62,633 nucleotides of DNA from Dehalococcoidia bacterium (GTDB lineage Bacteria > Chloroflexota > Dehalococcoidia > Tepidiformales > Tepidiformaceae): NCBI GenBank assembly GCA_041910095.1, contig JAYRRO010000297.1:1-62633 (forward strand). Direction: 5' to 3'. Position numbers and translations under genes: made by a program. Below are positions 6,734 through 30,786 of this stretch, piece after piece; within the stretch, counting starts at the first letter, position 1, and each line of letters starts with the position of its first letter. The notes under the pieces are model-generated. The model had not been told where the DNA came from, did not search any database, and saw only the letters and a program-made list of their open reading frames with translations.

Positions 6734-8053
6734 ATGACGCCCCATCGGTTTCGCGCCGCCGCGCTGGCGGCATTCGGCCTGGTCTCCATCGTCTTGGCAG
6801 GATGCACCCGGCCAACGGTCGGACCGGCGGCCACCGATACCCCCGGCGCCTCTTCGACGTCCACGTCGGTTCCCACGCCCACAGCGGCACAATCGGCAGC
6901 CAGGCCCGAATTCGAAGGCGTCCGCGCGTTCGAGCACATCCGCGCGCTAAGCACGGACATCGGCCCACGCGTGGCCGGCACCGATGGCGAACGGAAGGGC
7001 GCCGAGTACGTCGCCAACGCCTTCCGGGCGAGCGGATACAGCGTCGAGGTCTCGGACTTCGGGTTCTCGCACGAGCTGACCACCGCGAGCATCGACTTCG
7101 GCACGACACGCACCGATGCGACCGTGCTCAGCGGCAGCGGATTCGCGTCGGTCAGCGGGCCAGCCGTTTACGCGGGCACCGGTTCGGAGTCCGCCATTGC
7201 GGGAAAGAAGCTCACGGGCGCTGTTGCGGTCGTGGAACGCGGGCTCGTGTTCGGCGACACGCACGATCGGCTGAAGACGGCGGGCGCCATCGCCATGGTC
7301 ATCCTGAACCCGGCCGGGGGGCCGATGGAAGGCAACCTCGGGAAGAAGGTCGAGATGCCGGTCGTGCTCGTCGATACGGCCGCCGCCGAGCCCGTCCGCG
7401 CCGCCGCCCGCTCCGCAACGCGTCTCACGGTCACGGCAGCGCAGACGAACTCGATTCGCTCGGTGAATGTGCTCGCCCGTCCCTCCGCTGGAGAGGCGTG
7501 CCAGGTGCTCGTGGGAGGCCATCTGGACACCGTCCCGGGCGCGCCGGGCGCGCTCGACAACGGCAGCGGCACGGCGACAGTGGTCGAGCTCGCACGCGCG
7601 TTCGCGGCCGACGGGCTCGACGCGGGGCTTTGCTTCGCCGCATTCGGGAGCGAGGAAGAGGGCCTCTATGGCAGCGGCGCGATGGTTTCGGCCTTCCGCT
7701 CCGCGAACGCGCTGCCGAAAGCGATGATCAACCTCGATATGACGGGCCTCGGCACGATTGAGGTGGTCGGGAGCGCCGACCTCGCGCAGCAGGCCGAAAC
7801 CACCGGCAAGGAGATCGGAATCCCGGCGGCGCGCACGACCTGGCCGTCGAACTTCGGCAGCGATCACCAGAGCTTCCAGCGCGCGGGCGTCGCCGCGATC
7901 ACGGTCACGACAAGCGAGCTCGGGGAGTTTCACACGCCCGCTGATGTGCTGGCGACCATCGACGCCAGGGCGCTCGAGGACTGCGGTGACCTCGCCTATG
8001 CGCTCATCGCGCGGACGTGGAAGCGCGTTGCTCAGGGGCGGGTGGGCTCCTAG
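6734..8053 (+). CDS. M28 family metallopeptidase (aminopeptidase) lipoprotein with a PA domain
   Basis: Lipobox 'VLAGC'. 'GGHLDTVPGAPGALDNGSGTATVVELARAF' and 'FGSEEEGLYGS' are M28 zinc-ligand motifs. ATG 6734 is preferred, with GTG 6725 as the alternative. Confidence 0.85.
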   Translation: MTPHRFRAAALAAFGLVSIVLAGCTRPTVGPAATDTPGASSTSTSVPTPTAAQSAARPEFEGVRAFEHIRALSTDIGPRVAGTDGERKGAEYVANAFRASGYSVEVSDFGFSHELTTASIDFGTTRTDATVLSGSGFASVSGPAVYAGTGSESAIAGKKLTGAVAVVERGLVFGDTHDRLKTAGAIAMVILNPAGGPMEGNLGKKVEMPVVLVDTAAAEPVRAAARSATRLTVTAAQTNSIRSVNVLARPSAGEACQVLVGGHLDTVPGAPGALDNGSGTATVVELARAFAADGLDAGLCFAAFGSEEEGLYGSGAMVSAFRSANALPKAMINLDMTGLGTIEVVGSADLAQQAETTGKEIGIPAARTTWPSNFGSDHQSFQRAGVAAITVTTSELGEFHTPADVLATIDARALEDCGDLAYALIARTWKRVAQGRVGS

Positions 8054-9594: not shown

Positions 9595-10581
9595 CTAGCC
9601 CTCGGAGGGGGCCGTCGCGGCTGCCCGCGCGGCCTTTTCGCGCGCGAGCTGGCGGTCGATGCGGCGCGCCGCCCGTTCTTCGTGTTGCACCCAACCGTAG
9701 GCGATGAAGCCCATGGCGACGAGGAAGAGGAGGTCGCCGCCGACCCACATCGTGATCCCTGCCAGTTCCTGGTCCTTCAGGGGCGAAGGGCCCCACGTCC
9801 GGGCGAGTTCGGCGTAGTGGCGATAGCGCACCGTGCCGGCTTCGTAGATGGCGTTCGCGAGAAACGCGTTCTGGGGCATCTGCATGAAGAGGTACAGCAG
9901 GCGCGTCGGGTGGTTCATGCGCCATGGGCCGGGGTCGGCGTTGAGCACGGGCCACCAGAAGAGCAGCGCCGCACTGAGATACCAGGTGTGCTCCATGCGG
10001 TGCAGCCATGGGTTGTCGAGGGCCGCATTGAACAGCGGCGTGAAATGCGACCACCACATCGTGACGGCGAAGAGAACCCAGGCCAGCACCGGGAACGAGA
10101 GCACCTTGAGCGGGCGGCTATGGAGCATCGGCAGGAGTACGCGCCGGCGCGACCGCAAGGATACCGCGCGCAAGGCGAGCGTGATCGGTGCCCCGAGCAA
10201 CAGGAGCGGCGCCGCCACCATCGTAAGGAGGACGTGCTGCCACATGTGCACGGCGAAGAGGTCGCCGTCGTAGGTCGCGAGCGGTGACATGAGCGCGAGC
10301 GCCATCACGGCCATCCCCAGCGCGAAGTACACCACCCGCCGCCGAGGGAACCGGGACGCGGAATGCATGGCGGCGACGCGGCGGACCCCCGCGTAGTACA
10401 GCCAGGCGATGCCGCCGAATGGGACCAGGAACAGCGGGTCGAACTCCCACGCGGTGAGGAGCGTGGACGGCCCAGGTGCCGGGCTGGCGCCGCCATGGGC
10501 GAACGCGAGACCGGGCACCAGCGCGATGCCCGCGGCGGCCAAAAGTGCGAAAAGGCGGGTATGAACGCGGATTCGCGGCAT
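9595..10581 (-). CDS. ctaG: Cytochrome c oxidase assembly factor CtaG (Bacillus/Caa3_CtaG type membrane protein)
   Basis: Polytopic membrane protein with 'HMWQHVLLTMVAAPLLLLGAP' and 'WVGGDLLFLV' motifs typical of Caa3_CtaG. It is divergent from the oxidase operon. ATG 10581 is preferred because a GACACT hexamer lies 6 nt upstream. ATG 10629 is the alternative. Confidence 0.8.
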   Translation of the reverse strand: MPRIRVHTRLFALLAAAGIALVPGLAFAHGGASPAPGPSTLLTAWEFDPLFLVPFGGIAWLYYAGVRRVAAMHSASRFPRRRVVYFALGMAVMALALMSPLATYDGDLFAVHMWQHVLLTMVAAPLLLLGAPITLALRAVSLRSRRRVLLPMLHSRPLKVLSFPVLAWVLFAVTMWWSHFTPLFNAALDNPWLHRMEHTWYLSAALLFWWPVLNADPGPWRMNHPTRLLYLFMQMPQNAFLANAIYEAGTVRYRHYAELARTWGPSPLKDQELAGITMWVGGDLLFLVAMGFIAYGWVQHEERAARRIDRQLAREKAARAAATAPSEG

Positions 10582-10663
10582 GGGCTGAGTGTCGCACCGC
10601 GCGGCCGGGACGGCGAGAGCAGCGCGCATGCGAATGAACCGTATGAACGAAATTTGTCGTTTC

Positions 10664-10693
10664 TTGACGCCTTCAGCGGCCCGGGGCTATAAC
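10664..10693 (+). promoter_or_regulatory. Candidate promoter of the coxB-ctaD-ctaE-cupredoxin operon
   Basis: TTGACG (10664-10669), an 18-nt spacer, then TATAAC (10688-10693), in a locally AT-richer divergent intergenic region. Confidence 0.45.
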
Positions 10694-10786
10694 TGCTGTG
10701 CGACGCCGTGCCCAAGAAAGGGGCGGACGGCCACCGTGTGGTAGCCGTTCGGCCATGGCCGGTAGGGAAGCAGGGAAGGGACGCAC

Positions 10787-11605
10787 ATGCGCATCGCCGC
10801 TCGGCGACGGCCCGTCCGGGCCGCTCTGTTCGTTTCGCTCATTACCGCGCTGTCACTCATGGCGACGACCGGCATCGCGCTCGCGGACGCAAGCGGCCAG
10901 CCCAAAGGCATCACCGACGAAGCGAACACGATGCACGACCTCTACCTCCTCGTGCTCGCGCTGGCGGTGGTGGTGTTCGTGGCCGTCGAGGCGGCACTGG
11001 TGTTCACGCTCTTCCGCTACCGCAGGCGCGACGACACGCTGCCGCCCCAGACCCACGGGAACAACCTCCTTGAGGTCATCTGGACGAGCATTCCGATCAT
11101 CATCGTGCTCGTGCTGTTCGTGTTCTCCTTCATCACGCTGGTCGATGTCGAGCACGACCGGGACGACGGGAACCTGACCGTCGAAGTCCAGGGTTTCCAG
11201 TACCAGTGGCAGTTCACCTACAACATGAACGACCTCGGGCGGCGGCCGCAGGGCGCGGCAGCGTTGCCCGAGGGCCAGGTGGTCGTCATCGGCAAGGCCG
11301 GTCAGGAGCCCGAGCTCGTGATCCCCGTCGGTGAACCTGTCGAGTTCGCGCTCAAATCGAACGACGTGATCCATTCGTTCTACGTGCGGGACTTCCTCTA
11401 CAAGCTCGACGTGATCCCCGGGCGCGACAACCGCTTCACGGTTACGGCGAACGAAACCGGGGTGTTCCGGGGGCAATGCGCGGAGCTCTGTGGGCTGGAT
11501 CACGCGCTGATGCGCTTCACGCTGAAGGTGGTCGAGCGGAACGAATTCGACGAGTACCTGCGGCAGGTCGCGGCGGGCGCGAACGCATCGGCGCAGCGGC
11601 CCTAG
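10787..11605 (+). CDS. coxB: Cytochrome c oxidase subunit II (CuA subunit, no fused cytochrome c domain)
   Basis: Two TM helices, then the CuA ligands 'HSFYV' and 'CAELCGLDHALM'. The protein ends shortly after the cupredoxin domain. Confidence 0.93.
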   Translation: MRIAARRRPVRAALFVSLITALSLMATTGIALADASGQPKGITDEANTMHDLYLLVLALAVVVFVAVEAALVFTLFRYRRRDDTLPPQTHGNNLLEVIWTSIPIIIVLVLFVFSFITLVDVEHDRDDGNLTVEVQGFQYQWQFTYNMNDLGRRPQGAAALPEGQVVVIGKAGQEPELVIPVGEPVEFALKSNDVIHSFYVRDFLYKLDVIPGRDNRFTVTANETGVFRGQCAELCGLDHALMRFTLKVVERNEFDEYLRQVAAGANASAQRP

Positions 11606-11684
11606 GGCCGCTGTTTTCACGGGCCGGCGAAGACGCCGGGGCACGAGGAGGACGCCGCGGCGGCGGCGTGAGGAGGAGCAAGCA

Positions 11685-13298
11685 ATGGCGACTATCGCAG
11701 TCCCGCGGCCGGGCGAGTTGCGTCGGCCCGCCATCCTCGAGTGGCTGACGACCGTCGACCACAAGAAGCTGGGCATCCTCTACCTGTATTTCACGATGTT
11801 CTTCTTCGCGGTCGGCGGCATCCTGGCCCTGCTGGTGCGCACTCAGCTGGCGGTGGCGGACAACGACTTCGTCGATAACCACACGTACAACCAGATCTTC
11901 ACGATGCACGCCTCGGCGATGCTCTTCCTGTTCATCATTCCCGTGTGGGCCGCCTTCGGGAACTACGTGGTGCCACTGCAAATCGGCGCGGCCGATATGG
12001 CCTTCCCCCGGATTAACGCGCTCTCGTTCTGGCTGCTGCCGCCGGCGGGCCTGCTGATGTTCTCGGGCTTCCTCGTCGATGGCGGGTCGGCGCAGGCGGG
12101 GTGGACGGCGTACAGCCCCCTGGCCCGCACGCTGGGCACGGGCATGGACCTCTGGATCATCGCGGTGGTGCTGCTGGGCATCTCCTCGACGATCGGCGCG
12201 GCGAACTTCCTGGTGACGATGCTCCGCATGCGGGCGCCGGGCATGACCATGTTCCGGATGCCGATCTTCTGCTGGACGGTGTTCGTGACGGCGCTGCTGC
12301 AGCTGCTCGCGACGCCGGTGCTGGCGTCGGCCCTGGCCATGCTCTACATCGACCGGAATTTCGGCGGCTCCTTCTTCGATCCCAGTGGCGGCGGCAACGC
12401 GGTGCTCTGGCAGAACGTGTTCTGGTTTTATTCGCACCCGGCCGTCTACATCATGATCCTGCCGGGGATGGGGATCGTCTCCGAGGTGCTGCCGGTGTTC
12501 AGCCGCAAGCCCCTCTTCGGGTACAAGGCGTTCGTCTTCGCAACGCTCGGCATCGGAGGACTGGGCTTCAGCGTGTGGGCGCACCACATGTTCACGACGG
12601 GAGCGGTGCTGAAGCCGTTCTTCGGGTTCATGACGTTCATGATTGGCGTGCCCACGGGCGTGAAGATTTTCAACTGGTTGGCGACGCTCTGGCGCGGTTC
12701 GATCACCTTCGAGCCGCCGATGCTGTTCGCACTGGGCTTCGTCAGCATGTTCCTCATCGGGGGCATCAACGGGACGTTCTCGGCGGCGGTGCCGGTGGAC
12801 TTCGCCATCCACGACACGTACTTCGTCGTGGCGCACATCCACTACGTGTTGTTCGGCGGCTCCGTGTTCGCGGTGTTCTCGGGCATGTACTACTGGTTCC
12901 CGAAGATCTTCGGGCGGCGCCTGAACGACACGCTGGGGAACTGGCACTTCGTGCTCATGTTCATCGGTTTCAACCTGGCCTTCTTCCCGATGCATCTGCT
13001 CGGCCTGGATGGCATGCCGCGGCGCATCGCCACCTACAACAACACGGACTGGGAGTTCCTGAACATGCTCTCCACCACCGGGGCGTTCCTCATCGCGGTG
13101 TCGATGATCCCGTTCCTGATGGCGGTCGTGAAGGCGTTCATGAGCCCGGCGGACCAGCCCGCCGACCCCTGGCAGGCCAACACGCTCGAGTGGTACACGA
13201 GTTCGCCCCCGCCGGTGCACAACTTCGATGAACTCCCGGACATCCACTCGGAGCGGCCGCTGTTCGACCTGCGGCACGGGACCCCGAGCGGGCACTGA
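11685..13298 (+). CDS. ctaD: Cytochrome c oxidase subunit I (heme-copper oxidase catalytic subunit)
   Basis: 'WFYSHPAVYIMILPGMG', 'WAHHMFTTG' and 'VAHIHYVLFGG'. A GAGGAGGAG Shine-Dalgarno lies upstream. Confidence 0.97.
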   Translation: MATIAVPRPGELRRPAILEWLTTVDHKKLGILYLYFTMFFFAVGGILALLVRTQLAVADNDFVDNHTYNQIFTMHASAMLFLFIIPVWAAFGNYVVPLQIGAADMAFPRINALSFWLLPPAGLLMFSGFLVDGGSAQAGWTAYSPLARTLGTGMDLWIIAVVLLGISSTIGAANFLVTMLRMRAPGMTMFRMPIFCWTVFVTALLQLLATPVLASALAMLYIDRNFGGSFFDPSGGGNAVLWQNVFWFYSHPAVYIMILPGMGIVSEVLPVFSRKPLFGYKAFVFATLGIGGLGFSVWAHHMFTTGAVLKPFFGFMTFMIGVPTGVKIFNWLATLWRGSITFEPPMLFALGFVSMFLIGGINGTFSAAVPVDFAIHDTYFVVAHIHYVLFGGSVFAVFSGMYYWFPKIFGRRLNDTLGNWHFVLMFIGFNLAFFPMHLLGLDGMPRRIATYNNTDWEFLNMLSTTGAFLIAVSMIPFLMAVVKAFMSPADQPADPWQANTLEWYTSSPPPVHNFDELPDIHSERPLFDLRHGTPSGH

Positions 13299-13313
13299 CG
13301 ACACAACGGCGCG

Positions 13314-13347
13314 CCGGCCGGGCCACCCGTGTGGTGCGCCCGGCCGG
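13314..13347 (+). other. Intercistronic stem-loop between ctaD and ctaE
   Basis: CCGGCCGGGC/GCCCGGCCGG (10 bp) extends by CACC/GGTG around a 5-nt loop, with one bulge. No U-tract follows. Confidence 0.35.
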
Positions 13348-13383
13348 TGAGCCGGATCGAATAGAGACGAAGGAATCAGCGTA

Positions 13384-13995
13384 ATGGCGGCGTATGGCGT
13401 GGCGGTCCCTCACAAGAAGCAGCTGAGCAACGGCATGCTCGGCTTCATCCTCTTCCTGGCGTCGGAGGTGATGTTCTTCGGCGGGCTGTTCGCCGCGTAC
13501 TTCATCGCGCGGGCGGACGCGCCCGAGTGGCCGCCGGAGAGCCTGCTCACGGCCGAGCAGGTGGCCCGCGGCGTCGAGTTGCACCTTGAGTTTCCGCTCA
13601 CGTTCATCGCCACGATCCTGCTGATCCTGAGCTCGGTGACGATCCAGTTCGGGGTGATGCAGATCGCGAAGGGGAACCGCTCGGGGATGGTCTGGTGGTT
13701 CTTCGCCTCCATTGTCCTCGGCGTCGTCTTCCTCGCGATGCAGATGTACGACTACAGCCAGCTGCCGTTCGGGTCGGGGGACACGGTCTACGGGACGACC
13801 TTTTACACGCTGACGGGCTTCCACGGGGCGCACGTGGCCGGGGGCGTGATCTTCATGATGGTGGTGCTGGTGCGCGGTTTAGGGGGGCAATTCTCGTCCG
13901 AACACCACGAAGCGGTGGAAGCCTGCTCGTTCTATTGGCACTTTGTCGATATTGTGTGGATCGCCCTCTTCACGACGCTGTACATCGTCGGCTAA
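13384..13995 (+). CDS. ctaE: Cytochrome c oxidase subunit III
   Basis: 'GFILFLASEVMFFGGLFAAYF', 'FYTLTGFHGAHV' and 'YWHFVDIVWI'. Confidence 0.95.
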   Translation: MAAYGVAVPHKKQLSNGMLGFILFLASEVMFFGGLFAAYFIARADAPEWPPESLLTAEQVARGVELHLEFPLTFIATILLILSSVTIQFGVMQIAKGNRSGMVWWFFASIVLGVVFLAMQMYDYSQLPFGSGDTVYGTTFYTLTGFHGAHVAGGVIFMMVVLVRGLGGQFSSEHHEAVEACSFYWHFVDIVWIALFTTLYIVG

Positions 13996-14028
13996 GGGGA
14001 CCCGGGACACACAGGAGAGACGCACCGC

Positions 14029-15393
14029 ATGGACTCACAGCACAATGAACATGGCGGCCACGGAGAGGGGGCCGGGGTACACCTGCCCGACCCGAGCGTG
14101 TGGCCGCTGATCGTCGGACTCGCCGCGCTGGTGGTGGGCCTCGCGCTCATCTGGTGGTCGCGCGACCGGAACAACGACTTCTCCGGGCCGATCCTTGGGG
14201 CGGCGGTGGTGTGCGCGCTCGTGGCCGCGGCTGGCTGGGCATACGACGACTCGCGCATGCGGAAGAAGGCGGAGACGGGCCACGGCGGACACGCCGAAGG
14301 GCCGGTGCGCTTCACGCAGGTGCTGACCTTCGCAATCCCGGAAGGCGAACTCGCGGCCGCGCGCGGCGAGGGCGGTGTGATCCAGGCGCTCGAAAAGTCA
14401 GACCTCCGCGACGTGGACGGCTTCCAGGACCTGCGCGTGGTTGTCACCCCGGCGGGTTCGGGCCCGGCGCAGGCGCTCGCCGAGACGACGTGGTCGGCGC
14501 GCGAAGGGCTCGCGGCCTACGACGCCACGCGCCAGACGCTGCTGGACGTCGTGACAGGGCATTCGAGCCAGGTCGTGCCCGGCTCGGTGCAGGTGTTCGA
14601 CATGGAAGTCGTGCGGGACACGAAGGACGTGACCTTCAAGTTCGGCCTTGGCGCCGCTGGTGCGCTCTTCGGGGCGCTGATCGCGGGCGGCTTCATGATT
14701 GGCGCTGGCCTGACGCTGTTCCAGGACGATGCGGTCGTCGTCGCCAACGGCGGCGGCGAAGCCCCTGTTGAGAACCCGTACGCGGTCACCGCGACGGACA
14801 ACAAGTTCGACAAGGCTACGCTGACGGCGCCCCCGGAGACCGAGGTCACCTTCGACTTCACGAACAAGGGCAAGGCGAAGCACAACCTCAGCTTCTACCA
14901 GGCGGCCGGCGGCGCGGTGATCAAGGAAGGCGGCATCATCGACGGCGGCGCCACCGAAAAGGTGACCTTTAAGACGCCGGCGGCGGGCACGTACTACTTC
15001 CAGTGCGACCTCCACCCGACGGAGATGAAGGGCACGTTCGAAGTGAAGGCCGGCGCGGCGGCGCCCGGTGCGGCCGCAGGCGGCGGGGGAGGCGAAGGCG
15101 CGGGCGGGGTCACCGTCACCGGAACCGACAATAAGTTCGACAAGACGAGCCTGACAGCGTCCGCGGGCAAGGAGTTCGCCGTCACCTTCGCCAACAAGGG
15201 CAAAGTCAAGCACAACCTGTCGTTCTACGACAAGCAGAACGGCTCCATCCTCGTGCCCGGTAAGTCCGAGGGCGCGATCATCGACGGCGGGAAGTCGGAG
15301 ACGCTGAAGTTCACGCCGGCCGCGGCGGGCAAGTTCTGGTTCCAGTGTGACCTCCATCCGACGGAGATGAAGGGCGAGCTCGTCGTCAGCTAG
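14029..15393 (+). CDS. Fusion protein: N-terminal two-TM module in the subunit-IV position, an ABM-like alpha+beta domain, a third TM, and two tandem type-1 copper (cupredoxin) domains
   Basis: It is the last gene of the oxidase operon, with an AGGAGAG Shine-Dalgarno. The two cupredoxin repeats (aa 251-340 and 361-454) each carry 'KHNLSF' and 'FQCDLHPTEMKG', giving His, Cys, His and Met ligands. HGGH motifs flank the first TM pair. Confidence 0.8.
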   Translation: MDSQHNEHGGHGEGAGVHLPDPSVWPLIVGLAALVVGLALIWWSRDRNNDFSGPILGAAVVCALVAAAGWAYDDSRMRKKAETGHGGHAEGPVRFTQVLTFAIPEGELAAARGEGGVIQALEKSDLRDVDGFQDLRVVVTPAGSGPAQALAETTWSAREGLAAYDATRQTLLDVVTGHSSQVVPGSVQVFDMEVVRDTKDVTFKFGLGAAGALFGALIAGGFMIGAGLTLFQDDAVVVANGGGEAPVENPYAVTATDNKFDKATLTAPPETEVTFDFTNKGKAKHNLSFYQAAGGAVIKEGGIIDGGATEKVTFKTPAAGTYYFQCDLHPTEMKGTFEVKAGAAAPGAAAGGGGGEGAGGVTVTGTDNKFDKTSLTASAGKEFAVTFANKGKVKHNLSFYDKQNGSILVPGKSEGAIIDGGKSETLKFTPAAAGKFWFQCDLHPTEMKGELVVS

Positions 15394-15419
15394 CCGGCGT
15401 CCGTTCCCGGGACTCTCAA

Positions 15420-15448
15420 GGAGCCGCGCGATGCGCGGCTCCTTTTTT
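15420..15448 (+). terminator. Rho-independent terminator of the oxidase operon
   Basis: GGAGCCGCGC-gat-GCGCGGCTCC (10-bp perfect stem) followed by TTTTTT. Confidence 0.85.
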
Positions 15449-15486
15449 GTGCGCGGGGGTAGCACGAATGCGCCCAACGCATCAGG

Positions 15487-16410
15487 ATGGCGCCACCAGA
15501 TCCCGGGAGGCAGCGGGTGCACAGCGAGACCATCATCGACGAGGGCACAGGCCGGAAGTTCACTCTGGATGCCCCTTCGGACATCCGTCCCGGCGACCCA
15601 CTCGTCTTCCTGCTCAGCCTGCACGGCGGCGGGTCCGTCGGGGCCTGGCAACGGCTCTATTTCCCGGCGTTCGAGTATGCCGACCGGTACCGGCTGATCA
15701 TCGCGACGCCGTCGGCGGCGACGAAGGAGCCTTCGCGCCGCTGGGTGGCGGAGGCCGACGACGACCACCTGCGGAACGTGGTCGAGTACGTCGTCTCGCG
15801 CTTCGGGCGGGAGAACATCGTGTCGTTCTGGCTCGTGGGCCATTCACAGGGCGGGATGACCTCGAATCGGCTCCTTCAGCAGCCCTACTGGCAGGAACGC
15901 GTCGATGGCTGGCTGAGCCTCTCTGGCGGGCGCATCGGGCCGATTGAGTTGCCCGCGTCGTTCTTCGCGCCGGTGCGGAACGTCGCTCAGCCGCCAGCGG
16001 CGGGAAGCGGCCCGCGGCCCGGGCGGGCGGCGATGGTGGACTGCGACATCTCGTTCATCTTCGCGACGGGCGAGCACGAGATGGTGTCGTTGCCGGCGAC
16101 TTCGCCCTGGGCGGAGAAGTACGGTGCCGGGGCGCGCGTCCAACAGCCGGACATCATCGACGAGCAGCCCGGGCAGATCCATGACACGTCGCGCGAGGGG
16201 CGATCAACGCCGGCCTGGGGGCTTTCGCCGCGGCCGGGCACGGCGCGCCTGTGGCTCTACCCGGGTGCGCGCGACGGCCGCGTCATCGCCGACGTGGTGC
16301 GGCTCGATAAAGGCCACACGGAGGGCATCGAGCCGCGTGTTACGGAGAAGCTCATCGAACTGGTGGTGTCGGCCCCGGGCGGGAAACTTCGAGGGCTCCC
16401 GGGCGAGTAG
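15487..16410 (+). CDS. Alpha/beta hydrolase (esterase / PHB-depolymerase-like)
   Basis: 'LHGGG' and the nucleophile elbow 'GHSQGG'. GTG 15517 has a GGGAGG Shine-Dalgarno and is an alternative start. Confidence 0.65.
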   Translation: MAPPDPGRQRVHSETIIDEGTGRKFTLDAPSDIRPGDPLVFLLSLHGGGSVGAWQRLYFPAFEYADRYRLIIATPSAATKEPSRRWVAEADDDHLRNVVEYVVSRFGRENIVSFWLVGHSQGGMTSNRLLQQPYWQERVDGWLSLSGGRIGPIELPASFFAPVRNVAQPPAAGSGPRPGRAAMVDCDISFIFATGEHEMVSLPATSPWAEKYGAGARVQQPDIIDEQPGQIHDTSREGRSTPAWGLSPRPGTARLWLYPGARDGRVIADVVRLDKGHTEGIEPRVTEKLIELVVSAPGGKLRGLPGE

Positions 16411-16515: not shown

Positions 16516-17808
16516 TTACTCGAAGGCACCGTCCGCGAGGAGGTCGATGAACTCCTCCTCCGAGAGCCCCACGATTTCGCGGTAGACGCGCTCGTTGTCT
16601 TCGCCCAGGCAGGGCGCGGGCTTCGACGGGCCGCCAGGGGTCTTCGAGAGCCGGAAGGATGGGCCGTCGTACGAACGGTGACCCATGACGGGGTGGTCGA
16701 GGAAGTGGTAGTGGCCCCGGTGGGTTAGCTGCGGGTCCTTCCGCAGGTCCGAAGGCTTCTGGACGATGCCGCAGGGCACGCCAAACGACTGGAAGTGCAG
16801 CACGAGCTCGTCCGTGGTGAAGCGCCGGATGGGGGGCGCATCGGAGCCTTCGGGAGCTTCGTCGGGCGGCGGGCGGAGCGGGTCCAGGGTGTAGTCGTCG
16901 AGCCAGAACTGGAGATGGCGGTCGATCTCCTTCTGCTCGTTATGACGCGTCCAGCGTCGGCGCATGCGCTCCAGGTCGCACCATTCGGGGCGCCCGAGGG
17001 CCGCCTTGAGCGCCTCCCAGTGCTTCTCGGTTTCGCATGCGATGACGACGTAGCGGCCGTCCTGCGCGCGGTAGCAGTTGTGGGGCGCGGCCTCGAGGTC
17101 GTGATTGCCCATGCGCGTCTGGTTGTGGCCGTTCACGGTCCAATCGAGGATGGCGGTCCCGAGGCCGTGGACAGCGGCTTCGAACTGGCTGAAGTCGATG
17201 TACTGGCCCTTGCCCGTGCGGCGGCGGTAATCGAGCGCGGCGATGAGGCCGATGGCGGCGAAGTGCGGCACGAGGAAGTCGGTGTAGGCGATGCCGGTGC
17301 CGATGGGCGGGTCCTCGGGCCAGCCGGTGAGGTGATTGATGCCGGAGGCGGCCTGGAGGACGTGGCCATAGCCCATGTAGGGCCCCCACGGGCCGGTCTG
17401 TCCGTAGAGCGGCATGGAGATCATCACCAGGTCTTCGCGGCCCTTGCTGAGCGTGGCGTAATCGAGCCCGTAGCGCGCCATGATGCCGGGCGTGTACGAC
17501 TCGGTGACGACGTCGCACTTCTCCACCAGGCGGCGGGCGATTTCGGGCCCGCGCGGGTGCTTGAGGTTCACGGTCACGCCGTACTTCGAGCTGTTGAAGT
17601 TGGCGTAGTACCCGGAGTTGTCGATGCCGGGGATGCCGTTCACGAAGGGTCCGACGCGCCGTAGCGTCTCCGGGTAGGTCGAGGACTCGATGCGGATGAC
17701 TTCGGCGCCGTGGTCGGCCAGGTACTTCGACACGAGCGGGCCGACGCCCACCCAGGCGAAGTCGGCGACGCGGAGACCGGCGAACGGCTTCTTCAGTGCT
17801 TCGGACAT
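16516..17808 (-). CDS. Family III CoA-transferase (CaiB/BaiF family)
   Basis: 'GLRVADFAWVGVGPLVSKYLADHGAEVIRIE' is the family III N-terminal signature. Its ATG overlaps the upstream gene's TGA (ATGA). Confidence 0.85.
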   Translation of the reverse strand: MSEALKKPFAGLRVADFAWVGVGPLVSKYLADHGAEVIRIESSTYPETLRRVGPFVNGIPGIDNSGYYANFNSSKYGVTVNLKHPRGPEIARRLVEKCDVVTESYTPGIMARYGLDYATLSKGREDLVMISMPLYGQTGPWGPYMGYGHVLQAASGINHLTGWPEDPPIGTGIAYTDFLVPHFAAIGLIAALDYRRRTGKGQYIDFSQFEAAVHGLGTAILDWTVNGHNQTRMGNHDLEAAPHNCYRAQDGRYVVIACETEKHWEALKAALGRPEWCDLERMRRRWTRHNEQKEIDRHLQFWLDDYTLDPLRPPPDEAPEGSDAPPIRRFTTDELVLHFQSFGVPCGIVQKPSDLRKDPQLTHRGHYHFLDHPVMGHRSYDGPSFRLSKTPGGPSKPAPCLGEDNERVYREIVGLSEEEFIDLLADGAFE

Positions 17809-19085
17809 CAGATCACCATCTTCATGCGGAGGCGGCGGAGTTCGGCGGGTTCGAGGCCGAGGAGTTCGCCGTAGACGTCTTCGTTGTGCTCGCCGAGGTG
17901 CGGAGCGCGGCCGCGCTGCATCCAGGGCGTGGCGCTGAGCTTGAAGGGCGCGCCGGGGTAGGTGAACGCCTCGCCCAGGTCCTCGTGGGTGACGCGCGTG
18001 TAGTAGTCCCGGGCCGCGAGCTGCTTACTCTCGGCGATATCAGCAGGGCTGAAGACGGGCGCCCAGCCGGCATTCCGGGCCTGTGCTTCGCGCACCAGGT
18101 CTTCCTTCAGCTTCGTCCGGCAGAAGGCGATCATCGTCTCCTCGACCTTCGTGCGGTCCTCGACCGAGAGGGGAACGAGGGCGGTGAGCTTCTCGCGCCA
18201 CTCGGGGGCGTCGAGGCCGTTCGCCTCGCCGGTCTCGGCGAGCCAATCGATGATGGCGTTTGCGCCCGGGCCGATGAGGTGTCCGACCTGGAGGGCAGCG
18301 ACCCAGCCGTCCCTCGTCTCGAAGAGGTAGCGAGCGCCCATCTGGCCGTTGTTGATGCGGCGGATGCCCGGCCCGAACATGTCGAACCCGGAGATGTCCC
18401 AGGTCGGTGAGGCATGGTCCAGGGCGTTGACGACGGCTTCCTGCATCGAGGCATCGACGTGCTGGCCGATGCCGCCGTTGACGCCCCGCGCGTAGAGGGC
18501 GGTCATCGCGCCCACGCCGGCCTGGATGTTGACCTGCGTGAGGGCCTGCGGGGCGAGGATGTGGACGGGACCGCGATCCGGGTCGCCGGTGACGGACATG
18601 AGCCCGCCCATGGCCGCGCCGACGATGTCGGTGGCGTGCCAGGAACGGTAGGGCCCGGTCTGGCCGAAGTTGGTGATGCTGACGACCACGATGCCCGGGT
18701 TCACGGCGCTCAGCGTGGTGTAGTCGAGGCCGACGCTCTCGGCCGTCGGCGGCATGCAGGTCTCGATGACGATGTCGGCGGTGGCAACAAGCCGCTGGAC
18801 GAGTTCGCGGCCGGCGGCCAGCTGCAGCTGGCAGGTGATGGACTTCTTGCCGGCGTTCATCGCCCACCACCAGAGGCTCGTCTCCATGCCTTCCTCGCCA
18901 CGGAAGAAGGGGCCGCGAGCGCGGGCGGGGTCCCCGGCACGGGGTGGTTCGATCTTGATGACGTCAGCCCCGAGTTCGCCGAGGAGGCGGGCGCAGAGCT
19001 GGCCCTTTTCGTCGGAGAAGTCGAGCACGCGATAGCCGGCGAGCGGGCCAGCAGGATGAGGAAGCGGGACGGGCGAAGAGGCCAT
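17808..19085 (-). CDS. Family III CoA-transferase (CaiB/BaiF family)
   Basis: 'GYRVLDFSDEKGQLCARLLGELGADVIKIEPP'. Confidence 0.85.
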   Translation of the reverse strand: MASSPVPLPHPAGPLAGYRVLDFSDEKGQLCARLLGELGADVIKIEPPRAGDPARARGPFFRGEEGMETSLWWWAMNAGKKSITCQLQLAAGRELVQRLVATADIVIETCMPPTAESVGLDYTTLSAVNPGIVVVSITNFGQTGPYRSWHATDIVGAAMGGLMSVTGDPDRGPVHILAPQALTQVNIQAGVGAMTALYARGVNGGIGQHVDASMQEAVVNALDHASPTWDISGFDMFGPGIRRINNGQMGARYLFETRDGWVAALQVGHLIGPGANAIIDWLAETGEANGLDAPEWREKLTALVPLSVEDRTKVEETMIAFCRTKLKEDLVREAQARNAGWAPVFSPADIAESKQLAARDYYTRVTHEDLGEAFTYPGAPFKLSATPWMQRGRAPHLGEHNEDVYGELLGLEPAELRRLRMKMVI

Positions 19086-29631: not shown

Positions 29632-30744
29632 CTAGCGGGCGGCCCGGCGCCGCGCCACCAGGACGGATCCACCGCCCGCGACGATGGCCGCGACGATGGC
29701 TCCCGCGAGAAGCATCCAGCCGTCGCCGCCCTGCTGCCCGGAGCCCGTGTTCGGCGGGCCAGGCGCACGGGTCGACGGCGTTGGGGCAGCCTCGACCGTG
29801 ATGGTGCCCACCATCGCCTGGTCGGCGTGGAGGATGCAGTAGTACTGGTAGGTCCCGGCCTTGGTGAACTTCAGTTCGAAGCTCTTGATCTCGTTCGGAT
29901 CGGCCGGGGCACCCGGAGGCGACGCGGTCATGATGCCGCTGTTGACGAAGCCAGAGCCGTCATAGCCGGCCGCGGGCTTGTTGGGCGGGAGGGCGAACGG
30001 ATCGAAGCCCGGGCCCGGTGGAGGCGTGATGGGACCGAACGAAACGGTATGCGGCGTCGGGGCCGTGGCCTTCCATTCGACCGTGTCGCCGGCCGTAATC
30101 TTCGCGGCGGCCGGGAAGAACTGCATGACATCATCGCCGCCGCGCGTGGCGGGGCCGATGCTGAGCGTGTACTTGTTGCCGCCGCTGGCCATCGGCGTGA
30201 CGGCGGCGGACTGCGCCCCGAGCCCGGCGGCGATGGTCTTGAGGGCGCCCAGGCGATTCACGTAGTTGTTCGTGCGGCGCTCGTTGACGGTGGACTGGGA
30301 GTCGACGTTGCCGCCGTTCACAACGGTGACGGAGCCCGTCATGAAGGGGTGAATTTCGCAGGCGTACTTGAAGGTGCCCGCCTTCGTGAACTTGACCTCG
30401 AACGGCTTCACGCTGCCGTTCGGGTTCCCGAAGATGAGGTCGCTGGTAAGGACACCCGTGCCATCGTAGGTCGCGGGGGACGTGGCCGGCTTCGTCGTCG
30501 CCGTGACGGTGCCAAAGGTGATGGTGTGCGGTTCGAACCAGGGGAAGTGCCAGGCGACGGTGGTGCCGGTGGCGATGGTGAGGGTCTCGGGCAGGAAGGC
30601 GTTCACGGCGTAGCCGGGCTCGCCGTTGCCGGCATCGACGTGGATGGTGGCCGCCTGCGCGCTCGCGGAATGCGCGCCGCCGCCGCCCACAAGGGCAAAT
30701 GCGCCAATGGCCGCGGCCATGAGCCCGGCCAGAATCCGTTTCAT
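29632..30744 (-). CDS. Secreted tandem cupredoxin (two type-1 copper domains) with a C-terminal membrane anchor or sorting-like signal
   Basis: Signal peptide 'MKRILAGLMAAAIGAFALVGG'. Ligand sets: 'PHTITF...YACEIHPFM' and 'PHTVSF...YYCILHADQAM'. The C-terminus is 'PPNTGSG...GWMLLAGAIVAAIVAGGGSVLVARRRAAR'. A GGGAGG Shine-Dalgarno precedes ATG 30744. Confidence 0.8.
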   Translation of the reverse strand: MKRILAGLMAAAIGAFALVGGGGAHSASAQAATIHVDAGNGEPGYAVNAFLPETLTIATGTTVAWHFPWFEPHTITFGTVTATTKPATSPATYDGTGVLTSDLIFGNPNGSVKPFEVKFTKAGTFKYACEIHPFMTGSVTVVNGGNVDSQSTVNERRTNNYVNRLGALKTIAAGLGAQSAAVTPMASGGNKYTLSIGPATRGGDDVMQFFPAAAKITAGDTVEWKATAPTPHTVSFGPITPPPGPGFDPFALPPNKPAAGYDGSGFVNSGIMTASPPGAPADPNEIKSFELKFTKAGTYQYYCILHADQAMVGTITVEAAPTPSTRAPGPPNTGSGQQGGDGWMLLAGAIVAAIVAGGGSVLVARRRAAR

Positions 30745-30786
30745 CGGCAATGAACCTCCCCGTTCTGTCTCATTCGACAACGCGCA

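Follow-up and report, generated by a model that had tools for sequence, protein, structure and literature searches.

The locus described here raises the question of what the last gene of a cytochrome oxidase operon contributes to the enzyme when it joins membrane helices to two blue-copper domains, and by which route electrons would reach such an oxidase. The window, meaning the whole stretch of DNA analysed, comprises 62,633 nucleotides of a Dehalococcoidia bacterium from the order Tepidiformales (assembly GCA_041910095.1, contig JAYRRO010000297.1). The gene in question, referred to below as the target, is an open reading frame (ORF) at 14029..15393 on the forward strand that starts with ATG and encodes 454 amino acids. 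The reading favoured in this study, to which a probability of roughly 0.55 is given, is that the target is a composite fourth subunit of an A2-type aa3 oxidase with tethered auracyanin-like carriers that would donate electrons to the CuA centre. The encoded protein was divided into the following parts (TM, transmembrane; pLDDT, the per-residue confidence of the structural model).

14029..14277, forward strand: residues 1-83, a His-rich N-terminus with the motif HLPDPSVWP and two helices, equivalent to subunit III helices 1-2 (CtaF-like)
14302..14616, forward strand: residues 92-196, an ABM (dimeric alpha+beta barrel) fold domain according to the structural model and Foldseek, predicted to be cytoplasmic
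14641..14724, forward strand: residues 205-232, the third TM helix, predicted to run from inside to outside on the basis of hydropathy, a model helix at 207-232 and flanking charge
14770..15048, forward strand: residues 248-340, cupredoxin domain 1 (Pfam Cupredoxin_1) with ligands H285, C326, H329 and M333
15049..15105, forward strand: residues 341-359, an Ala/Gly/Pro-rich flexible linker, with composition read directly and low pLDDT at 348-359
15106..15390, forward strand: residues 360-454, cupredoxin domain 2 (Pfam Copper-bind at 362-453) with ligands H395, C440, H443 and M447

The membrane module and the oxidase operon

Three hydrophobic segments were located in the target by hydropathy, at about residues 23-45, 52-72 and 205-232, and an AlphaFold2 model built with 26 homologues (mean pLDDT 78.9) placed the first two helices at 25-45 and 52-83. 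A preliminary description of this DNA, made from the sequence alone, had put these two helices in the place of subunit IV; the helix pair itself was recovered, whereas the generic subunit IV assignment gave way to a specific one, namely helices 1-2 of subunit III. The first indication comes from CtaE, the subunit III encoded directly upstream (203 amino acids), which is taken to be a 5-helix form because its match to the Pfam COX3 profile spans only positions 68-256 of 258; all 70 of the CtaE matches in the family are 190-211 amino acids long. An N-terminal profile (85 residues, 23 homologues) was then searched against all Protein Data Bank (PDB) sequences, and its top 16 matches were all N-termini (residues ~2-60) of canonical 7-helix COX3 proteins, in register, with a best E of 7.5e-4 and with the R. 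sphaeroides chain aligned over both helices. Additionally, a chimera of residues 1-79 and CtaE gave a continuous COX3 match over positions 4-256 at 151.2 bits, compared with 134.4 bits for CtaE alone (+16.8), whereas a control chimera carrying the reversed segment showed no gain (133.9 bits, with the match beginning at profile position 67). Combined, the agreement with the N-terminal ~65 positions of the COX3 profile (PF00510), the H-x-x-P-S-x-W-P motif and the two-helix hairpin indicate that TM1-2 of the target correspond to helices 1-2 of canonical subunit III, which are absent from the 5-helix CtaE. Because the membrane module is a genuine piece of subunit III, the target protein is very probably a stoichiometric, integral subunit of the oxidase.

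The preliminary description also reported HGGH motifs on either side of the helix pair, and this claim held for one side. The N-terminal His-rich stretch is conserved, with H8 and H18 kept in at least 90% of the sequences and aligned with the likewise His-rich start of canonical subunit III, whereas the HGGH motif after TM2 falls in variable columns. The His-rich N-terminus of subunit III has been proposed to be a proton-collecting antenna for the D pathway. With regard to subunit IV, the profile PF12270 (Cyt_c_ox_IV) scored the target at 15.6 bits (E 0.017, profile positions 78-128) and did not reach its cut-off of 26.9; this sub-threshold match falls on the last two helices of the profile, which fits the subunit III reading, and matches were found in only 3 of 18 family members, at E 0.18 or worse. 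Single-sequence Pfam searches with the N-terminal 91 residues of the target and with the 18 family members returned weak matches to TctB, DUF4131, PF12270, COX3 and others, and these were set aside as non-discriminating noise.

A known system with a divided subunit III is that of M. smegmatis (CIII2CIV2), in which CtaE and CtaF jointly form the subunit, the counterparts of helices 1-2 come from CtaF and the surface contacts complex III (PMC8361435). The likeness to the present locus consists of a 5-helix CtaE and a separate protein carrying the helix 1-2 equivalents; the difference is that CtaF is a four-helix protein without soluble domains, whereas in the target the helix pair is followed by the ABM domain, TM3 and the copper domains.

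The genes and signals around the target were assigned from Pfam and NCBIfam scans of the oxidase genes and from direct reading of the sequence, as follows.

9595..10629, reverse strand: ctaG, a caa3-type assembly factor divergent from the operon (Pfam Caa3_CtaG, 245 bits)
10787..11605, forward strand: coxB (Pfam COX2_TM and COX2; NCBIfam CoxB, 196.9 bits against a cut-off of 147.7)
11685..13298, forward strand: ctaD, subunit I of A2 type (Pfam COX1, 543 bits)
13384..13995, forward strand: ctaE, 5-helix subunit III without canonical helices 1-2 (Pfam COX3)
14013..14019, forward strand: Shine-Dalgarno-like AGGAGAG, read from the sequence 9 nucleotides 5' of the target ATG
15418..15444, forward strand: intrinsic terminator with a 12-bp stem (9 G-C pairs), a 3-nucleotide loop and a T-run

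The order is coxB-ctaD-ctaE-target, and the ctaE stop at 13995 leaves a gap of 33 nucleotides before the target ATG, in which the Shine-Dalgarno sequence of the preliminary description was read again. The earlier view that the target closes coxB-ctaD-ctaE before a strong terminator also agrees with the present data, since COX2, COX1 and COX3 matches lie upstream and the hairpin at 15418-15444 is the sole strong terminator-like site within 10400-15800. As far as sequence can tell, the target is co-transcribed with coxB-ctaD-ctaE.

The oxidase itself could be classified from its subunits. CoxB terminates after the CuA motif CAELCGLDHALM and carries no CxxCH, consistent with the previous statement that it ends right after CuA and has no fused cytochrome c, and CxxCH was found in none of the 61 CoxB proteins of the family. 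Long C-terminal CoxB tails in three relatives (L035, L036 and L039) were considered as extra domains and rejected, as they look like out-of-frame read-through. CtaD carries the sequence FWFYSHPAVY, with Tyr-Ser and no Glu, and YSHPxVY is common to 65 of the 66 family CtaD proteins. Tyr-Ser in helix VI of subunit I, replacing the D-channel Glu, is the established signature of the A2 type, a class including the caa3 oxidases of Thermus and Rhodothermus. By this motif, the enzyme is assigned to the A2-type haem-copper aa3 oxidases, the class that includes caa3 enzymes with fused cytochrome c; the latter have their cytochrome c attached to subunit II, and no such fusion is present here.

The soluble domains and their orientation

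Two cupredoxins with complete sets of type-1 copper ligands had been recognised previously, and both were recovered well above the Pfam cut-offs: Cupredoxin_1 (PF13473) scored 96.7 bits against 27 and Copper-bind (PF00127) 48.2 bits against 21.2, while the scan of residues 1-240 returned nothing significant. By score and by the His...Cys-x(n)-His-x(n)-Met set present in each, both domains belong to the type-1 copper cupredoxins. The first ligand set (H285, C326, H329 and M333) does not vary among 26 homologues, the two domains align over about 90 residues as clear mutual duplicates, and the AlphaFold2 model shows beta-sandwich domains at 252-339 and 361-453 with low-confidence linkers. Among solved proteins, those nearest in sequence to the copper domain comprise three auracyanins, namely A (2aan, E 1.7e-5), B (1ov8) and the one from Roseiflexus (6kol), together with a Bacillus Cupredoxin_1 protein (4hcf); the auracyanin matches (E 1.7e-5 to 8e-4) cover parts of the domain. 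The ligand loop has the form C-x2-H-x3-M, and a 3-residue gap relative to auracyanin B marks a shorter Cys-His loop. The copper domains of the target are regarded as relatives of the auracyanins and not as orthologues; they are also fused to a larger protein, not stand-alone.

The middle domain, for which an ABM-like alpha+beta segment of ~100 amino acids had been suggested, was modelled alone at a pLDDT of 88.3 and a predicted TM-score (pTM) of 0.80, with the order beta-alpha-alpha-beta-beta-alpha-beta, and appears in the full-length model as a ferredoxin-like domain at 94-194 with a pLDDT above 90. Foldseek against the PDB returned IsdI, IsdG, the ABM proteins 1tz0 and 4dn9, and MhuD as its best matches (E from 2.6e-5, TM-score (TM) 0.55-0.67), supporting the earlier suggestion. 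The likeness to ABM and IsdG-like proteins is one of fold: Pfam ABM (PF03992) gave no match to the target up to E = 10, the sequence profile of the domain found 1tz0 alone in the PDB at E 0.056, and the domain lies between TM helices of an oxidase subunit. It is nevertheless the best-conserved part of the protein, with a mean column identity of 76% and 31 invariant residues, including R94, Q97, W155, Y164, R168 and the tail FDMxVxRDTK. In a weak hhalign alignment with IsdG (E 0.09), Y164 stands opposite the catalytic Trp67 and no conserved His occurs at +10, the position of the haem ligand His77. An IsdG-type haem oxygenase was therefore considered and rejected, the Asn/Trp/His triad apparently not being kept on this weak alignment. 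On the models, the domain is of ABM fold and is not called a haem oxygenase, and its default reading is that of a dimerisation or structural part on the cytoplasmic side.

The orientation of these domains was read from flanking charge. Mean counts of Lys plus Arg over 26 homologues are 0.1 in the N-terminal tail, 1.7 in the TM1-TM2 loop, 5.3 after TM2, 2.8 before TM3 and 0.2 after TM3, and the N-terminus of canonical subunit III lies on the cytoplasmic (N) side. Since the charge bias and the subunit III orientation coincide, the N-terminus and the ABM domain would be in the cytoplasm and the copper domains would face outward, on the side of CuA. The preliminary description had likewise placed a third TM helix before the cupredoxins and the cupredoxins on the CuA side; the segment at 205-232 with its model helix at 207-232, and the drop in charge across TM3, are in agreement with both.

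Distribution, gene order and related architectures

Relatives of the target were collected in two ways. A word-indexed protein search found at least 224 clusters of the target architecture, which carry no more informative names than 'cupredoxin domain-containing protein', 'plastocyanin' or 'plastocyanin/heme-degrading monooxygenase HmoA' (JGI). A scan of genomes, with each species represented once, yielded 109 relatives, of which all but one contig in a 'Hyphomicrobiales' metagenome-assembled genome (MAG) are labelled Chloroflexota; the labels include Dehalococcoidia, Tepidiformales and Tepidiforma and, in some cases loosely, 'Anaerolineaceae'. The exceptional contig (L016, JBLNCO010000279.1, binned as 'Hyphomicrobiales bacterium') holds a full Chloroflexota-type ctaG/coxB-ctaD-ctaE-target cluster at 53-85% identity and is probably mis-binned. 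At the best segment, Dehalococcoidia bacterium STL-CHL36 (L006) is 100% identical to the target and Ca. Amarobacillus elongatus 87%.

Synteny was scored on 79 kept loci with upstream DNA. The target lies directly 3' of ctaE, in the order coxB-ctaD-ctaE-target, in 71 of these; seven of the eight exceptions have it directly after ctaA-ctaB, and a single locus (L008) has no cox/cta neighbour. The preliminary description had let its proposal stand or fall by whether homologues co-occur with oxidase genes, and the synteny survey that it suggested placed 78 of the 79 loci within a cox/cta cluster. The coxB-ctaD-ctaE-target layout is maintained throughout the order, the usual gene order in relatives is ctaA-ctaB-coxB-ctaD-ctaE-target, and ctaG keeps an equivalent position in many related loci. 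No ctaA or ctaB homologue was found anywhere in the 62-kb window; ctaB lies no more than 7 kb from the gene in 52 of 84 related loci. In the seven loci of the second type (L031, L034, L050, L059, L065, L074 and L017, with the match at ~7001 in most), the homologue follows ctaA-ctaB with no coxB-ctaD-ctaE between, and several of them have a degenerate PS-x-WP motif, such as VHEESSVWPV or PQPEPRGWPV.

Among the 76 complete genome homologues, 75 keep at least one C-x2-H-x(2-4)-M copper motif and none contains CxxCH; one motif is present in 38, two in 37 and none in one. The domain order given in the preliminary description was upheld, and its two cupredoxins proved not to be general, as half of the homologues have one. 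The homologue with no motif (L082, match 7001-7723, from the long-read MAG MFD05442.bin.2.62) stops just after TM3 without a cupredoxin, which might be explained by a frameshift or by natural truncation. With respect to cytochrome c, no plausible CxxCH-bearing gene and no cytochrome c gene were found within the 62-kb window, and a single CxxCH ORF was found among the 84 related loci.

The window does encode a second blue-copper protein, at 29632-30780 on the reverse strand (382 amino acids). Its N-terminus is signal-like, its two cupredoxin domains contain CEIHPFM and CILHADQAM, and RRRAAR comes after a hydrophobic C-terminal anchor; these features make it a candidate separate membrane-anchored carrier and a candidate upstream partner of the target.

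The target also has modular relatives beyond its own architecture. A profile of residues 1-235 was run exhaustively over 1.84 billion representatives and retrieved only 104 matches; besides the full form, four groups (A-D) could be told apart among their sequences. Group A consists of the two TM helices and the ABM domain only, at about 180-217 amino acids and with no cupredoxin (for example L087 2376-2951 and L090 248-793, 181-217 amino acids); one group A gene stands directly after ctaA-ctaB, and the precomputed annotation includes weak PF12270 and faint ABM matches. Group B, with at least 339 clusters labelled Dehalococcoidia, has an N-terminal ABM domain ('MEYVQ...') followed by three helices and one or more cupredoxins, and in three genomes its gene is convergent to a ctaA-ctaB-coxB-COX1-COX3-COX4_pro-ctaG cluster (L086, L091 and L092, with the gene at about 6001 or 8001 and a COX1 of ~640 amino acids). 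Group C, with at least 462 clusters labelled Ca. Limnocylindria or Chloroflexota, combines two subunit-III-like helix pairs, a further helix and a cupredoxin without ABM; many members have precomputed PF12270 and PF13473 matches, and the genes are encoded after COX3 inside cox operons. Group D comprises helix pairs standing alone. The full form and groups B and C all link to cox clusters, so Chloroflexota have joined cupredoxins to the oxidase on at least three occasions, either physically or through gene position.

Limnocylindria-type cox operons were read on a JGI 3300041965 contig (genes 762-1871 and 4433-5569) and in L089. One Limnocylindria-type contig encodes a COX2 of 369 amino acids with an additional Cupredoxin_1 domain, and in a Limnocylindria-type operon a 60-amino-acid ORF lies between COX3 and the protein with two subunit-III-like helix pairs and a cupredoxin. 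Downstream of the target in the present window are two CoA-transferase family III genes, with an alpha/beta-hydrolase gene between the target and this pair (regions 16516-19085 on the reverse strand and 15487-16410 on the forward strand for the three genes together); the same two CoA-transferase genes were found downstream in four of five loci read (L001, L034, L050 and L065, not L003).

Proposed electron delivery to the oxidase and alternative roles

In the favoured reading, the helix pair would dock at the subunit III position and fix the target protein to the oxidase, and the copper domains, tethered on the outer face, would carry one electron at a time, with linkers of about 17 residues before them and about 19 between them. 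Their electrons would come from a quinol-oxidising complex, or else from a separately anchored cupredoxin, of which the product of 29632-30780 is an example, and would go on to the CuA of CoxB. Tethering is plausible because Tepidiforma, whose envelope consists of cytoplasmic membrane, peptidoglycan and S-layer (PMC10284905), lacks an outer membrane to hold a soluble carrier. Furthermore, since subunit III contacts complex III in known supercomplexes, a carrier on subunit III would sit between donor and acceptor. The tethered copper carrier would have the part that the cytochrome c on subunit II plays in caa3 oxidases, and we infer that it may replace cytochrome c as the donor.

A broader version of this proposal is put forward tentatively. 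The non-phototrophic Chloroflexota (Tepidiformales, other Dehalococcoidia and Limnocylindria) could possibly possess an aerobic chain whose last step runs without cytochrome c through a built-in copper carrier, with the ABM domain as a second site for haem or quinone binding or for dimerisation. In such a chain, the copper domain would swing between a quinol-oxidising complex on the subunit III face and CuA.

Several observations weigh against tethered donation to CuA. Tepidiforma isolates are oxidase-positive, and an oxidase-positive reaction is usually taken to mean that cytochrome c is present. Subunits II and III are not known to be in contact in canonical oxidases, so the carrier would have to reach CuA over a linker of ~17 residues. 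Helices 1-2 are not strictly required, because F. johnsoniae functions with a 5-helix subunit III alone. The cytoplasmic ABM domain, at 76% identity, outranks the copper domains in conservation, and the carrier model gives it no role. Finally, a cupredoxin-free protein of two TM helices and ABM occurs after ctaA-ctaB, and the core module may thus have a function different from electron delivery.

Of the alternatives, the one that survives best, doubtful as it is, regards the target as a partner comparable to AcoP, bound to the oxidase, with copper domains that stabilise or tune it or form a side branch, and with the main donor (an anchored cytochrome c or cupredoxin) elsewhere. AcoP is encoded in cox clusters, binds cytochrome c and the oxidase, and maintains activity (PMC4059628). 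The oxidase-positive phenotype, the second anchored two-domain cupredoxin in the window, and a number of copper domains that varies from one to two, with none in one homologue, would all suit such a role, whereas the absence of a cytochrome c gene from the window and the single CxxCH ORF among the 84 related loci speak against it. The copper domains also resemble auracyanins, which are carriers, and cupredoxins are fused to oxidase membrane modules in three architectures, one of which, the COX2-cupredoxin protein, mirrors caa3; these points favour donation by the target over a tuning role.

An assembly or maturation factor, in which the ABM domain would handle haem O or haem A for subunit I and the copper domains would mature or protect CuA, is unlikely on the present evidence. 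It would account for the high conservation of the ABM domain and for its top fold matches being the haem-degrading IsdI and IsdG, and the gene order is suggestive, with ctaG adjoining the operon, the cupredoxin-free form directly after ctaA-ctaB, and the full-length homologue after ctaA-ctaB with no coxB-ctaD-ctaE between in 7 genomes. Adjacency to ctaA-ctaB, however, is also expected from loss or relocation of those oxidase genes, and the fold resemblance is tempered by the weak alignment in which Y164 takes the place of Trp67 and His77 has no conserved counterpart, and by a Pfam ABM profile that does not reach E = 10. The invariant His/Cys/His/Met set, moreover, marks a redox type-1 site, and to our knowledge the full set is not seen in the known copper chaperones (Sco and PCuAC motifs). 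A two-domain copper enzyme (small laccase or nitrite reductase) that merely shares the operon is very improbable, since laccases and NirK lead the Foldseek search of the whole model at TM 0.16-0.18 and a root-mean-square deviation (rmsd) of 16-19 Å, as expected of a generic cupredoxin fold, while the target protein contains no HxH motif anywhere and hence no type-2 or type-3 copper ligands, each domain has just about 95 residues, and half of the homologues have a single one. Multicopper oxidase and copper nitrite reductase were rejected as assignments on the same grounds.

The proposed donor arrangement can be compared with three known systems. The caa3 oxidases of Thermus and Rhodothermus share with it the A2 Tyr-Ser motif, a caa3-type CtaG and a carrier that is covalently built in; they carry haem c on subunit II, whereas the target carries type-1 copper on a subunit III fragment and leaves CoxB plain. 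Chloroflexus and Roseiflexus provide the closest solved sequences in their auracyanins A and B, type-1 copper carriers of the same phylum, but these stand alone, are encoded away from cox genes and are not known to be fused to any oxidase subunit, in contrast to the target with its fusion and shorter ligand loop. Auracyanin B is membrane-tethered and has been linked to respiration, with the respiratory alternative complex III as the partner proposed for it, and auracyanins have been proposed as carriers from alternative complex III in Chloroflexus (PMC3150298). AcoP and rusticyanin of Acidithiobacillus ferrooxidans are cupredoxins of a cox cluster, and AcoP associates physically with the oxidase (PMC4059628); compared by gene context only, AcoP differs in being a single-domain green copper protein with no subunit III fusion and no ABM, from a lineage with a different chemistry (acidophilic iron oxidation).

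Blue-copper oxidase donors, fusions of carrier and oxidase, cupredoxins in cox clusters (AcoP; PMC4059628) and a split subunit III are already known. No description of the target protein or of its sister architectures was found in the literature that could be searched, in keeping with the preliminary description, which did not recognise the architecture as described. What appears to be new is that an A2-type oxidase has a subunit III fragment fused to an ABM domain on the cytoplasmic side and to auracyanin-like domains facing outward. Judged from the predicted proteins, the tethered-cupredoxin design is common in Chloroflexota: the three architectures amount to at least 224, 339 and 462 clusters, which are annotated just as 'plastocyanin' or 'cupredoxin domain-containing protein'. 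The biochemistry is feasible, because Tepidiforma has been cultured and is oxidase-positive. If the favoured reading is true, the enzyme would be a copper counterpart of caa3 in which a haem-copper oxidase brings its own blue-copper module for electron entry, and subunit III, which is usually viewed as a passive lipid-binding or stabilising subunit, could anchor an electron donor. It would also provide a testable answer to the question of how electrons are routed to the aa3 oxidases of abundant Chloroflexota in soil, wastewater and hot springs.

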